From contig JAGMCT010000023.1 of assembly GCA_023129075.1 (NCBI GenBank), positions 811 through 64,810 on the forward strand: 64,000 bases of DNA. The letters run 5' to 3'. Under the pieces are notes generated by a model. It searched no databases and was not told the DNA's origin. It worked only from the letters and a program-made list of their open reading frames with translations. The position numbers and the translations under genes were made by a program. Below, piece by piece: positions 3,921-53,299 of this stretch (position 1 is its first letter; every line of letters starts with the position of its first letter). This DNA is from Candidatus Micrarchaeota archaeon. Lineage in GTDB: Archaea; Micrarchaeota; Micrarchaeia; Anstonellales; Bilamarchaeaceae.

Positions 3921-4124
3921 TTATTGGAACTCTGGTTCAGGGAACTCGTCTTCAGTTAAATCAATCCCTAAATCCTGAATTTCCAAATCATCTAAGCTTA
4001 TGTCAAGAGGTTCGTTTACCTTTTTTTCCGTTACCTGTCCTTCCTCTTCAATCTCTTGTACCTGAGGACCGATACAACCAAAGAACAGCAAGGAAATCAT
4101 CAGTATGGTAATTATTGTTCTCAT
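3921..4124 (-). CDS. small secreted/lipoprotein-like acidic protein
   Basis: 67 aa; N-terminal hydrophobic signal ending FFGC, then an acidic tail; overlaps the upstream gene by 4 bp. Confidence 0.4.
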   Translation of the reverse strand: MRTIITILMISLLFFGCIGPQVQEIEEEGQVTEKKVNEPLDISLDDLEIQDLGIDLTEDEFPEPEFQ

Positions 4125-5011
4125 GCTTCCCCTCTTATCTCTTCTACTAAATCAACAAGCTTTTCCCTTGCCTCTCCAATCTTCGCTCTTGCTTCAAGTG
4201 CTTCCCCTGCATCATAGTATTCATCATCCCCTATAGATATCGCTTCATCTAAAAGGTCTTGAATCTCTTCCAGCTCGGTTTCATAACCTTCGGTTCTTTC
4301 CTGTATTCTTTCAAGGAAAAGATTCATTTTTTTATTGTTGAATTTGGCCCAGATGTGAAGATGTTTCATCCAGACATCTCTTCTTATTTCCAGTATATCC
4401 TCGTTTTCGTTGTCCACTGCATCCTGAAGGATTTCGGCATTTTCTTCTGCTTCTTCAAGAACATCCTCTATTTCTGAAACATCATAATCCCTTTCTTCCA
4501 TTGAATCTGTGGCGTTCTTTGCTACTTCCATCCAGTGTTCATGTTTTTCCAGTTCTCTTTCTGAGTTAGAAAACGCTGCGCTTCTGAAGCATACCTGAAG
4601 TTCGTCTTTCTTTTCATCAAAATCTGCCCTAATCTCAGCCATCATATCTGCTCTTTCCTGTCCCTTCAATCCGCTTCTAGCTTCTTTTCTCATGTCTCTT
4701 AAATATTCAGAGGTTTCTCTCCATACCTCTCTGAGGTCATCCATTGCCCCTCTAAAAGAGGATCGATCGTTATTCCCAACGGCGTCTGCAAGAACACCAA
4801 GTGAATCATCCAGTTGTTCCTTGTATTCATTTATCTCATCCTCGCTCGCATTCTCAACAAAATCAGGAACCGAATCAAGAAGAGAGCTCTGGAAAACCAC
4901 CCTGCACTCTGCCATATCATACCTGTGCGTCATTCCATAATCCCTGTAATCCCCAAAGAATCCTGCAAAGAGCATCCCAAGGGCCAACAAGCCTAGTAAC
5001 AATTTTTTCAT
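4121..5011 (-). CDS. secreted acidic alpha-helical protein of unknown function
   Basis: 296 aa; signal peptide MKKLLLGLLALGMLFAGFF; highly acidic E/D-rich body; strong six-frame ORF. Confidence 0.55.
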   Translation of the reverse strand: MKKLLLGLLALGMLFAGFFGDYRDYGMTHRYDMAECRVVFQSSLLDSVPDFVENASEDEINEYKEQLDDSLGVLADAVGNNDRSSFRGAMDDLREVWRETSEYLRDMRKEARSGLKGQERADMMAEIRADFDEKKDELQVCFRSAAFSNSERELEKHEHWMEVAKNATDSMEERDYDVSEIEDVLEEAEENAEILQDAVDNENEDILEIRRDVWMKHLHIWAKFNNKKMNLFLERIQERTEGYETELEEIQDLLDEAISIGDDEYYDAGEALEARAKIGEAREKLVDLVEEIRGEA

Positions 5012-28651: not shown

Positions 28652-28724
28652 TAGCCCTGACCGGATTCGAACCGGTGTCAACGGATCCAGAGTCCATTAT
28701 CCTTGACCACTAGACTACAGGGCT
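28652..28724 (-). tRNA. tRNA-Gln (anticodon CTG)
   Basis: Reverse complement AGCCCTGTAGTCTAGTGGTCAAGGATAATGGACTCTGGATCCGTTGACACCGGTTCGAATCCGGTCAGGGCT with anticodon loop CTCTGGA. Its 5' end overlaps the stop codon of the HAD gene. Confidence 0.85.
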
Positions 28725-29281
28725 TTTTGGATGAAGTTCTTGTTTAATTCACCCGGTTTTATTTTAAATGTTTTTATGTTTGCATTCTTTCCTGCAAGCT
28801 CATCCCAGAATCCATCTCCCAAGAATATAGTGCTTTTTCTGGTTTCTCCTGCTTTTTGCATCAGGAGGTAAAGCATTTCAGGGTTTGGTTTGGGTCTTTG
28901 GACTGAATCCCTTCCTGCTATGAAATCAATTTTAATATTTTCCTTTTCAACGAATTCCCTTGCTGTTTGTTCGTTGTTGTTTGTTGCTATGGCTGTTTTA
29001 TGTCCTTTTTCTCTAAGGTATTCAAGCATCTCTTTTATTCCATTGTAAAGCTTGTAATTGCCTGAGTCCAGAGCGTTTTTTTCATGTCTTCCGAATATTC
29101 GGTTTATTTCTAATCTTGCTTCTTTGTCTTTCTCGGAGATTTCATTTGTAATTGTAACGAGGTGGGCCTTTGGGTCGCTGACTAAATGGCTGAATTTTTT
29201 CATTACCTCATTTTGCACTGCACCATACCAGTCTACTCCTAATTCAACCAGAGTGTGGTCTAAATCGAATATTAAAAGCAT
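28715..29281 (-). CDS. HAD-superfamily hydrolase (phosphatase)
   Basis: Start reassigned to MLLIFDLDHTLV (HAD motif I DxDxT); the 40-aa upstream extension in the ORF track overlaps the tRNA-Cys gene. The stop TAG lies inside the tRNA-Gln acceptor stem. Confidence 0.65.
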   Translation of the reverse strand: MLLIFDLDHTLVELGVDWYGAVQNEVMKKFSHLVSDPKAHLVTITNEISEKDKEARLEINRIFGRHEKNALDSGNYKLYNGIKEMLEYLREKGHKTAIATNNNEQTAREFVEKENIKIDFIAGRDSVQRPKPNPEMLYLLMQKAGETRKSTIFLGDGFWDELAGKNANIKTFKIKPGELNKNFIQKAL

Positions 29282-29282
29282 A

Positions 29283-29370
29283 AGCCAGGAAAGGGAATCG
29301 AACCCCTCTATGCTGGTTTCTTTCTCACTGGAGCTTGCAGCCAACCACATAGCCAATCTGTCATCCTGGC
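29283..29370 (-). tRNA. tRNA-Cys (anticodon GCA) with putative ~17-nt intron at 37/38
   Basis: Minus-strand GCCAGGATGACAGATTGGCTATGTGGTTGGCTGCAA[GCTCCAGTGAGAAAGAA]ACCAGCATAGAGGGGTTCGATTCCCTTTCCTGGCT. Acceptor GCCAGGA/TCCTGGC; T-arm AGGGG-TTCGATT-CCCTT; anticodon stem GTTGG/CCAGC; loop CTGCAA… The intron boundaries were not verified as BHB. Confidence 0.55.
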
Positions 29371-29512
29371 GAAGTTTCTCTGAGCCGGGAGCTATCGCCA
29401 AAGGCGATTCAATCCTGGCGAAGCCAAGAGCTATAACGCGGAGCGTTATTCAATCCTGGCGAAGTTTCTCTGAGCCGGGAGCTATCACCGAGGGTGATTC
29501 AATCCTGGCATT
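29371..29512 (-). repeat. three tandem tRNA-5'-end-like repeats (41-49 nt) upstream of tRNA-Cys
   Basis: Each unit is GCCAGGATTGAAT-[hairpin]-AGCTCCCGGCTCAGAGAAACTTC. The hairpins (ATCACC…GGTGAT, ATAACGC…GCGTTAT, ATCGCC…GGCGAT) differ by compensatory changes. Confidence 0.7.
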
Positions 29513-29540
29513 CAGTAACAATTAACATAGTGCATAACTT

Positions 29541-29558
29541 TTTAAATTGTTATATGAG
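29541..29558 (+). promoter_or_regulatory. putative archaeal TATA/BRE promoter of the 5S rRNA gene
   Basis: tttaaattgttatatgag lies ~20-30 nt upstream of the 5S 5' end. Confidence 0.3.
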
Positions 29559-29568
29559 TTAAAGTATG

Positions 29569-29688
29569 CTTGTCAGCGGTCATAGGAGAGGGGAAACACC
29601 CGTTCCCTTCCCGAACACGGAAGTTAAGCCTTCTCACGGTTTTGCAAGTACTGCCCTAAGGGTGGGAACACGGACTGCTGCTGACATC
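29569..29688 (+). rRNA. 5S ribosomal RNA
   Basis: Contains the universal 5S block CCCGAACACGGAAGTTAAGCC; the terminal helix TGTCAGC…GCTGACA closes the molecule at ~120 nt; A/T-rich TATA-like sequence ~25 nt upstream. Confidence 0.85.
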
Positions 29689-29986: not shown

Positions 29987-30004
29987 AGATCCCTTCCCCT
30001 GCAC
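29987..30004 (+). repeat. 15-nt direct repeat of the tRNA-Leu(CAG) 3' end (att-like remnant)
   Basis: atcccttcccctgca at 29990-30004 is identical to tRNA positions 29803-29817; preceded by a T-loop-like ttcggattttaagatccc. Confidence 0.5.
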
Positions 30005-52520: not shown

Positions 52521-52844
52521 CGAGGAGAAATAGGATGTTGGATTTGATGGAATATATTTTGGAGGATTTAAACAGAAAATAAATAGGTTACAAAATCACT
52601 TCATCTCCATTTTCAAAAATTTAACATGGTTTTTCAAAAACCACCCTAAAAACACGAAAGGATTGTTTTTGATATTTCTCCCTGTTTTTTCTTTACAATC
52701 ATAATATTGAATGTTTACCCCCACAACATACACAAACCCTGTTATTTTTGCTAATGTGGAGGTATAATAATATTATTCAAAATTCGGGGGAGGGTCAGGA
52801 GGACCCTCAAACTGGGGAGGGGATGTCCCCCTCCGCGGGTCGGA

Positions 52845-53041
<197 letters not shown>

Positions 53042-53200
53042 GAGTTTGCGAGCAAGGGGCTTGAGTTGCAAAGCAACTTTGCGGGACAAGCGTTTTCCGA
53101 ATGGAAAACGATGTGCCATTTCCGAAAGGAAATGTGCATATCACCGAAAAGGTGATTCAACCGCCACCCCTGCGAGTCAGTGAGCAAGGGATTTGTTTTC
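53042..53200 (-). repeat. upstream array of four short hairpins plus a duplicated tRNA-5'-end segment
   Basis: On the tRNA strand, CCCTTGCTCACTGACTCGCAGGGGTGGCGG is duplicated. It is followed by hairpins TTGAATCACC-TTTTC-GGTGATA, CATTTCC-TTTC-GGAAATG, CGTTTTCC-ATTC-GGAAAACG and AGTTGC-TTT-GCAACT. The first hairpin shares its motif with the tRNA-Cys repeats. Confidence 0.6.
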
Positions 53201-53299
53201 AATTCATAATATGAAAAAACACAGCCCCTGCACAAGTAATTCAGAAGTCCCATTAGATTTATAAAGTAATTGTTTTAATAAAAAAACAGGTGATTATAC

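Follow-up and report, generated by a model that had tools for sequence, protein, structure and literature searches.

What are the three G+C-rich tandem repeats that stand directly upstream of a tRNA-Cys gene in a Micrarchaeota genome, each of them beginning with a copy of the 5' end of that very gene? The repeats lie within a stretch of 64,000 nucleotides (assembly GCA_023129075.1, contig JAGMCT010000023.1, positions 811 to 64,810 of the forward strand), hereafter the window, whose proteins are exact matches to MCK4319885, MCK4319887, MCK4319889 and GCA_030628865.1; the host is a Candidatus Micrarchaeota (DPANN) metagenome-assembled genome, of which the window and a further 9.3 kb of the same contig were covered. 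Genomes of DPANN archaea are tiny and streamlined, and no tRNA genes more fragmented than theirs are known. An earlier note on this DNA had described the repeats and their hairpins, and had proposed that they might serve 5' processing by the splicing endonuclease, act as small RNAs or be integration scars. The reading which we consider best, and to which we give about an even chance of being correct, is a different one, namely that the repeats form a tRNA leader of tandem, self-insulating acceptor-stem mimics.

Three tandem units precede an intron-containing tRNA-Cys gene

The gene beside the repeats had been taken for a tRNA-Cys with an intron at the canonical position, and this was borne out: its alignment covered the whole of the Rfam tRNA model (RF00005) and scored 38.2 bits, above the gathering score of 29, showing the anticodon GCA and extra nucleotides inserted behind position 37, and ARAGORN with introns allowed returned Cys(GCA) i(35,17) for 29283-29370 on the minus strand. 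Default ARAGORN miscalled the gene as Leu(CAA). The intron has exact bulge-helix-bulge (BHB) geometry with cuts at 37/38 and, as read from the sequence, pairing of h 3/3, H 2/4 and h' 3/3, and is predicted to form a relaxed BHB motif with two of four pairs in the central helix. Such a motif may be acceptable to a broad-specificity endonuclease of the type found in ARMAN-2, a Micrarchaeota member with many disrupted tRNAs (PMC3239211). The tRNA-Cys is complete on its own. The features of the locus are:

29283..29370, minus strand: tRNA-Cys(GCA) gene, 88 nt, discriminator U (Rfam tRNA and ARAGORN -i).
29318..29334, minus strand: predicted tRNA-Cys intron, 17 nt, after position 37, GCUCCAGUGAGAAAGAA (Rfam, ARAGORN and pairing read from the sequence).
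29461..29509, minus strand: unit U1 (distal, 49 nt), with its 5' copy at 29503-29509, hairpin at 29484-29498 and 3'-acceptor-like UCCCGGC at 29474-29480; covariance model 60.9 bits.
29420..29460, minus strand: unit U2 (41 nt), with its 5' copy at 29454-29460, hairpin (7 bp) at 29433-29449, 3'-acceptor-like UCUUGGC at 29423-29429 and a short spacer UUC; 35.7 bits.
29371..29419, minus strand: unit U3 (proximal, 49 nt), with its 5' copy at 29413-29419, UUGA, hairpin at 29394-29408, AGC, UCCCGGC at 29384-29390, U and a 12-nt spacer; 62.1 bits.

The three units (49, 41 and 49 nt) run head to tail directly upstream of the gene and make up a 139-nt array. TRF found a period of 49 with 3.2 copies over 29363-29509 and the repeat search found a 57-nt pair of 93% identity, 90 nt apart, confirming, together with the sequence itself, that the three tandem repeats of 41-49 nt described earlier are real. 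The start GCCAGGAU is common to all three Cys units, each of which, just as had been described, begins with GCCAGGAT, identical to tRNA-Cys positions 1-8 and followed by TGAAT. The perfect hairpins of 6-7 bp were likewise found, with three different stems: ATCACC/GGTGAT in U1, ATAACGC/GCGTTAT in U2 and ATCGCC/GGCGAT in U3. The tail that the units were said to share held for U1 and U3, which have AGCTCCCGGCTCAGAGAAACTTC, but not for U2, which has AGCTCTTGGCTTC.

This tail begins AGC-UCCCGGC-U in U1 and U3 and AGC-UCUUGGC-U in U2, and the 3' acceptor strand of tRNA-Cys with its discriminator reads UCCUGGC-U, from which each unit's version is one transition off. Every unit ends, in other words, in a near-copy of the tRNA-Cys 3' acceptor strand, a point which the earlier note had missed; the base after it is a U, like U73 of tRNA-Cys, and the spacer of the Cys units ends in AAACUUC. 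U1 and U3 match at 93% identity, giving the array an A-B-A order with a period of 90 nt, and all four of their differences fall inside the 15-nt hairpin ((15/49)^4, or ~0.009 by our own arithmetic). Two further assemblies of this organism carry the 278-nt array region without any difference. No match to a tRNA model was found for the units themselves (Rfam, E <= 1), and by their sequence they do not appear to be tRNAs.

The units are predicted to fold as nested stem-loops

In each unit the 3' strand pairs with the unit's own GCCAGGA, closing the unit. The minimum free energy (MFE) fold was the same as the centroid fold in every unit and comprised a 7-bp outer stem, a 4x3 internal loop (UUGA/AGC), an inner stem of 6-7 bp and a 3-nt loop, with fold z-scores of -2.5, -3.9 and -2.6 for the unit cores and of -4.7 for U2 with its spacer. 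Each unit is thus predicted to be a closed nested stem-loop, a "mini-tRNA" of acceptor stem plus one arm, and as it carries both acceptor strands it can close on itself as an acceptor-stem mimic.

The earlier note had also held that hairpin pairing is kept through compensatory changes, and this was upheld in a structure-guided alignment of the three units, where the inner helix (6 pairs) was 100% paired and 3/6 pairs were changed on both sides. One of the differences in the inner stem is a double transversion from C-G to A-U, and another is a pair inserted in U2. The outer helix was 90% paired, with one G-C to G-U change and one A-C mismatch common to U1 and U3. Over the 13 pairs as a whole 94.9% of cells pair, compared with 28-52% when the partners are slid. 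With three sequences, this covariation is modest, suggestive support and is not decisive.

Folding of successive prefixes predicts that the growing transcript folds unit by unit. When the tRNA-Cys 3' end was forced onto any of the four GCCAGGA copies, the energies obtained were nearly equal (-79.5 to -81.7 kcal/mol), and as these registers are near-isoenergetic the decoy 5' strands would be genuine competitors of the real one.

Several other identities were considered for the units and rejected. As K-turn (with the 4x3 internal loop) or box C/D RNAs their sequences do not fit, a mimic of the 16S 3' end and Shine-Dalgarno sequence by AUCACC/GGUGAU is contradicted by the different stems of U2 and U3, and armless tRNAs with anticodon-like loops are contradicted by loops of only 3 nt.

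A second leader of the same design precedes tRNA-Leu(UAA)

A G+C-rich island 23 kb from the Cys array led to a tRNA-Leu(UAA) gene which default ARAGORN and the Rfam scan in gathering mode had both missed. Its leader, homologous to the Cys array, had escaped the earlier note.

52845..53041, minus strand: tRNA-Leu(UAA) with a 111-nt intron (Rfam 41.7 bits; ARAGORN -i Leu(taa) i(41,111)).
53042..53231, minus strand: leader of tRNA-Leu(UAA), with unit A at 53174-53231 and unit B at 53042-53173; fold z = -6.2.

The 5' copy of unit A, GCAGGGG (53225-53231), matches tRNA-Leu(UAA) positions 1-7 and that of unit B, GCAGGGGUGGCGG (53161-53173), matches positions 1-13. Both units have a 3'-acceptor-like CCCUUGC (53184-53190 and 53052-53058), which pairs with GCAGGGG via a single G-U and corresponds to CCCCUGC in the tRNA; next come a U and a 9-nt spacer, the end of which reads ACUC (AAACUC), the spacer AAACU(U)C being common to Cys and Leu units. 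Unit A has kept both acceptor strands despite an A/T-rich interior. In unit B the hairpin UUGA-AUCACC-UUUUC-GGUGAU-A (53139-53160) comes right after the acceptor copy and has the linker and stem of Cys U1, and the motif UUGAAUCACC...GGUGAUA is found at two places only in the 64 kb, namely Cys U1 and this leader. Alignment of U1 with the Leu leader (P = 3e-4) gave the best non-self match in the window. A genome-wide covariance-model search had been suggested by the earlier note; carried out over the window, with a model of U1 and U3 and filters off, it placed the two best sense-strand non-self matches in the Leu leader. Forcing tRNA-Leu(UAA) into its three acceptor registers gave -142.2 to -144.9 kcal/mol. 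The 5' direct repeat at this gene is 30 nt long (26/30 identical) and set around 103 nt.

The leader architecture is real and recurs at a second tRNA. The outer stem follows the tRNA in question, whereas inner hairpin, linker and spacer are common to the Cys and Leu leaders. Exact upstream copies of the 5' strand number three for Cys and two for Leu-UAA, with none for Val, Gln, Pro or Leu-CAG; in the window, such a leader is found at 2/2 intron-containing and 0/4 intronless tRNAs (Fisher's exact ~0.07, own arithmetic).

Some further structure was seen around tRNA-Leu(UAA). Its intron holds an internal imperfect duplication (UUGCCAAAGAAGCUUCACCAAGAAAGCUUC versus UUGCCAAAGAAUCUGCACUAAGAAAGUUUAG), and its trailer (52780-52844, minus strand) has a hairpin, GGAGGGG-GACAU-CCCCUCC, which amounts to the acceptor stem with the 2-71 pair flipped, a second G+C-rich hairpin, GAGGGUC-CUCCU-GACCCUC, and an A/T-rich UUGA-AUAAU-AUU-AUUAU-A resembling a decayed UUGA-hairpin unit.

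Composition and promoter geometry

The unit array is 54% G+C, compared with 52-62% for the tRNAs and 5S rRNA, 38% for the whole window and 23-26% for the flanking true spacers, and only 0.14% of 139-nt segments are as G+C-rich; the array has an RNA-gene-like composition.

29539..29546, minus strand: TATA-like box TTTAAAAA, 30-37 nt upstream of U1, a putative promoter element.

This is the only A/T-rich box upstream of tRNA-Cys on its strand. It sits in a 62-nt spacer (23% G+C) common with the divergent 5S promoter region, and the 139 nt between the start of U1 and tRNA-Cys hold no comparable A/T-rich box. Similar boxes precede the mature 5' ends of the intronless tRNAs and the 5S gene of the window by ~20-33 nt, and TATA-like TTTATAAA stands 27 nt upstream of unit A in the Leu leader. 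From the position of the sole TATA-like box we infer that transcription of tRNA-Cys begins before U1 and takes in the array as a leader, and the array is most likely a transcribed, self-folding pre-tRNA leader. A bacterial-type promoter and terminator scan was uninformative for an archaeon. Plus-strand transcription towards the 5S gene was also considered, and was rejected as there is no promoter-like box for it and three of the five units pair better on the tRNA strand.

Searches for further copies

Apart from the Leu(UAA) leader, no further copy of the unit was found in the 64-kb window by nhmmer or the covariance model, and the further 9.3 kb of the contig held no RNA genes. No unit copies were found by nhmmer in 18 loci, and 109 kb of sequence from relatives yielded no significant match to the covariance model. 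The unit pattern GCCAGGATTGAATN{9,15}ATAGCTC had 6 matches, all bacterial and none with the hairpin, in a collection of 185,579 species (one genome per species), where by our own estimate ~8 would be expected by chance; a stricter unit pattern had 0 matches in JGI metagenomes and 0 in viral contigs, and a 22-nt tRNA-Cys pattern had 0 matches in JGI metagenomes. The hairpin motif had 27 matches in viral contigs, in unrelated coding-like contexts and without tRNA-like flanks, which look like chance or like coding sequence of one phage family, and the Leu 5' repeat had 1 viral match in an unrelated coding-like context. From these searches the units do not appear to be a dispersed repeat family of the REP or MITE type. 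A 16-contig phage family in IMG/VR carries the exact U1 20-mer TTGAATCACCCTCGGTGATA in A/T-rich coding-like sequence, which was judged to be a coincidence.

Relatives were also followed through the neighbouring genes. The best SAHH relative is syntenic, with 95% protein and 86% nucleotide identity, and its contig stops at window position 29158; other SAHH relatives (~76%) were not syntenic, homologues of the HAD protein were none of them closer than 30%, and homologues of the radical-SAM neighbour (<=62% identity) were not syntenic and had no relevant tRNA. One distant relative (GCA_964490215.1), with 57% identity in the neighbouring radical-SAM protein, has an intron-containing tRNA with a nested minihelix (z = -5.9) on its 3' side, the outer strands of which look like copies of the acceptor stem of that tRNA. 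The minihelix reads CGGGCC-GA-[UUUGGCU CGCA AGCCAAA]-CUGA-GGCCCG and is followed by the same trailer.

4090-4310 of CAZBAM010000008.1, plus strand: intron-containing tRNA and minihelix, with a 12-nt direct repeat AGGCCCGTTATT (ARAGORN Ser(GGA)).

ARAGORN calls this tRNA Ser(GGA), but its anticodon loop reads CUCUUA by eye and would make it Lys-CUU.

A model for the leader and its rivals

In the model that we favour, the 139-nt array would be the transcribed 5' leader of pre-tRNA-Cys and would consist of three tandem tRNA-derived minihelices, each made of an exact 5' acceptor copy, the 4-nt UUGA linker, a 6-7-bp hairpin and a near-copy of the 3' acceptor strand. It would have grown by local tandem duplication of a segment that took in the 5' boundary of the gene, with the real tRNA acceptor strand as the final, incomplete repeat of the array. 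Each unit would fold as it emerged during transcription and so sequester its decoy 5' strand, and the genuine 5' strand alone would be left for pairing with the tRNA 3' end. Constraint would then act on structure rather than on sequence, closure being maintained because a unit without its own 3' partner would trap the tRNA 3' strand. Removal of the leader by RNase P at the true +1 would be the most economical processing route, and ribonucleoprotein RNase P is near-universal in archaea, DPANN included (PMC6380272). The units may also be excised as minihelices by RNase P and tRNase Z.

Several points weigh against this model. The same inner hairpin at two tRNAs would not be explained by duplication in place and appears to need either transfer between loci or a sequence-specific function. 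No orthologous array was retrieved, the contig of the closest relative ending 125 nt before the tRNA, and transcription and processing are deduced from promoter-like boxes only. The observed covariation, which comes from three units of one genome lineage, was matched by 18/500 shuffles, template-switch repair can make paired changes in perfect palindromes without selection, and the A-C mismatch in the outer stem of U1 and U3 on the sense strand would be a G-U on the antisense strand. Finally, nearest-neighbour calculations do not give the fully native register as the MFE fold, in which the U3 copy pairs with the tRNA 3' end instead.

Of the competing explanations the least improbable, though still unlikely, is that the units are functional tRNA-like modules, released as minihelices through RNase P and tRNase Z cleavage and then signalling processing, stabilising intron-containing precursors that mature slowly or acting as tRNA-Cys/Leu-specific acceptor decoys. 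An outer stem that mirrors the cognate acceptor at two loci of unrelated sequence, the tRNA-Cys-like U after the 3' strand, the RNA-gene composition, the retention of both acceptor strands around the A/T-rich interior of Leu unit A and the presence of leaders at both intron-containing tRNAs and none of the four intronless ones (Fisher ~0.07) would all suit such modules, as would the processing and CCA-tailing of acceptor-mimicking stem-loops in plant mitochondria (PMC1920247, PMC11658184). However, the units have neither a T-arm motif nor a tRNA model match, the Leu units have U after the 3' strand where tRNA-Leu has A73, and there is nothing between the units in need of release. Neutral, recent slippage comes next in our ranking and is likewise improbable; the array would then be a functionless tandem duplication of the 5' edge of the gene, and intrastrand template switching, acting on quasi-palindromes, would have preserved or restored the hairpins. 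The classic tandem repeat of 3.2 copies, whose last partial copy is the tRNA start, the 93% identity of U1 and U3 in an A-B-A order of 90-nt period, the lack of copies elsewhere (in the species-collection, JGI metagenome and window/18-locus searches) and the weak statistics of n=3 are consistent with this, but slippage fits badly with an array that holds 54% G+C between spacers of 23-26%, with differences that are confined to the hairpin and all compensated, double transversion and inserted pair included, and with the appearance of the same design with other acceptor sequences at a second tRNA and in a distant relative.

That the units are scars of mobile elements integrating at tRNA genes, as the earlier note had suggested among other roles, is doubtful and stands third among the rivals; the units would be att-type end duplications plus an element remnant, and the shared UUGAAUCACC...GGUGAUA would be element-derived. 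Integration is a documented source of archaeal partial tRNA genes (PMC9897764), the same hairpin beside copies of two different tRNAs is what related elements would be expected to leave, and direct repeats of a tRNA end with its flank occur at three loci (30 nt at Leu(UAA), 31 nt at Cys, and the Leu(CAG) 3' end 170 nt downstream), given which a mobile or recombinational origin is possible. The details fit this reading poorly, however: the documented repeats are ~44 bp long and 9-23 kb apart (PMC9897764), whereas here tRNA identity extends over 8 nt at a spacing of 41-49 nt, no element genes and no integrase are found nearby, identical borders on three trimmed remnants would be implausible, integration at a 5' end does not predict a complementary 3'-acceptor-like strand in every unit, and 0 viral contigs carry the unit, the 27 viral matches to the hairpin motif looking like chance or coding sequence of one phage family. 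We regard as very unlikely a functional Micrarchaeota pre-tRNA device of alternative registers, in which isoenergetic 5' strands would let the 3' end choose its register, for 5' maturation or as an intron-precursor checkpoint, with versions in which RNase P cuts upstream and the 49-nt insert is excised as a position-7/8 intron, or in which the minihelices are tRNA-Cys/Leu acceptor decoys. Least credible of all, and highly improbable, is the proposal of the earlier note that the units are 5' processing elements for the splicing endonuclease, or the alternative of a non-canonical position-7/8 intron with U1 as the real 5' exon. It would suit the Micrarchaeota lineage, with the broad-specificity enzyme and many disrupted tRNAs of ARMAN-2 (PMC3239211), the isoenergetic acceptor registers and the similarity of the box-to-U1 distance to the box-to-+1 distance at other tRNAs, and GGAUUGAAUCNCC from two units can pair as a weak 2+4+2 BHB-like geometry. 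A scan of 29240-29530 (minus strand) for geometries with >=9/10 pairs, however, showed no excess of BHB motifs at unit borders over shuffled sequence (52 versus a mean of 44 and a maximum of 67) and no cut at 29370/29371 or at equivalent unit/tRNA offsets, and the sole self-pairing geometry deletes 90 nt between units and gives no mature tRNA. The resemblance of the unit tail to the tRNA-Cys intron, also proposed earlier, was not robust (P = 0.24-0.44 in one scoring and 0.045 in a gap-tolerant one; P = 0.88 at the Leu locus).

For all its streamlining, this genome spends 140-190 nt of G+C-rich structured sequence before each of at least two intron-containing tRNAs. If the units are maintained, they would be the first archaeal tandem leader elements to mimic the acceptor stem of their own downstream tRNA, and would bear on how RNase P and tRNase Z choose the right helix, on how misfolding of a precursor is avoided when decoy strands are present and on duplicated tRNA ends as raw material for permuted and split tRNA genes. 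If they are mere duplication debris, tRNA gene edges would be hot spots of local duplication in this lineage.

Neighbouring genes

The units mislead gene callers, which give a false HAD N-terminus here and missed tRNA-Leu(UAA). The N-terminal extension of the HAD hydrolase, which had been marked for trimming in the earlier note, is indeed an artefact: HAD profiles align from residue 2-3 of a 188-aa form (start ATG 29281, MLLIFDLDHT), and the annotated 211- and 228-aa forms run through tRNA-Cys and U3. Two spurious open reading frames cross the tRNA and the repeats, one of 155 aa (29058-29525, plus strand) and the other the 228-aa HAD form (28715-29401, minus strand, MCK4319887.1), and the repeats give both of them repeated peptide segments.

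The region 28715-29283 (minus strand) is extremely compact: a single base separates the tRNA-Cys discriminator from the HAD ATG (29281), the last two sense codons and stop of HAD lie inside the 5' end of tRNA-Gln (28724), and tRNA-Val comes 25 nt further on. The HAD mRNA looks 'punctuated' by tRNAs, and if RNase P cut at tRNA-Gln, the message would lose its stop codon. Divergent from the tRNA-Cys leader is a stand-alone 5S rRNA gene (29572-29686, plus strand, 77.7 bits), with tRNA-Leu(CAG) 47 nt after it and no 16S or 23S gene nearby. A further 170 nt downstream of tRNA-Leu(CAG), GATCCCTTCCCCTGCAC (29988-30004, plus strand) is a decayed copy of the T-arm and 3' acceptor end of that tRNA, preceded by two perfect hairpins (AUUACCC-UGC-GGGUAAU and GGAAACC-UUU-GGUUUCC); this copy may be an att-type duplication or a tandem tRNA remnant.

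Comparison with known systems

A tRNA-like element upstream of the Haloferax volcanii 5S rRNA, the work of Hölzle et al. in 2008, is reportedly cut by tRNase Z and would set an archaeal example of a tRNA-like structure that guides a tRNA-processing enzyme from within a precursor. That system has a single element which defines an rRNA 5' end, whereas here the 5S gene is on the other strand, past a promoter-like spacer, and the units precede a tRNA. Bacterial REP/BIME arrays resemble the units as short, G+C-rich, imperfect intergenic palindromes in tandem with compensated stems, but REPs are present as hundreds of dispersed copies of fixed sequence, and the units are found only beside tRNA genes, in one orientation, with outer arms that follow the tRNA. 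Disrupted archaeal tRNA genes (split, permuted or multi-intron) share with the units the DPANN/Micrarchaeota clade and a link to intron-containing tRNAs, and permuted genes are believed to have arisen from duplicated tRNA segments (PMC3239211, PMC3978253). They are however processed at BHB motifs, and the units have no BHB at their borders and adjoin a complete tRNA.

Partial tRNA genes of integrative elements (van der Gulik et al. 2023, PMC9897764) are, like the units, direct repeats of a tRNA end beside an intact gene, but they are contiguous copies of ~44 bp, usually of the 3' half, with kilobases of element between them. At the loci described here the contiguous tRNA copy is 8 nt (Cys) or 13 nt (Leu) and the repeats are 33-103 nt apart with no genes between; 7-13 nt of the 5' end and a complementary 3'-like strand come every 41-133 nt, with no element.

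The t-elements and acceptor-mimicking stem-loops of plant mitochondria (Forner et al. 2007, PMC1920247; Ceriotti et al. 2024, PMC11658184) are, like the units, tRNA-like or acceptor-like structures in longer transcripts beside genes. RNase P, RNase Z and the CCA-adding enzyme are known or believed to recognise these plant structures, which have no role in translation and are not charged (PMC1920247, PMC11658184). Whereas t-elements have conserved the T-arm sequence GGTTCRANYCC and serve as markers of mRNA ends, the units stand in tandem in a tRNA leader and read GGATTGAATCACC or GGATTGAATCGCC, with no T stem-loop. An acceptor-like stem is present in all of them, in the three Cys units as an outer stem of 7 bp with 90% pairing and in both Leu units as GCAGGGG/CCCUUGC. 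Unlike in t-elements, this outer stem copies the very tRNA that follows, and processing of the units is a prediction only. With these differences, the t-elements and acceptor-mimicking stem-loops of plant mitochondria appear to be the closest analogues of the leader units before tRNA-Cys and tRNA-Leu(UAA).

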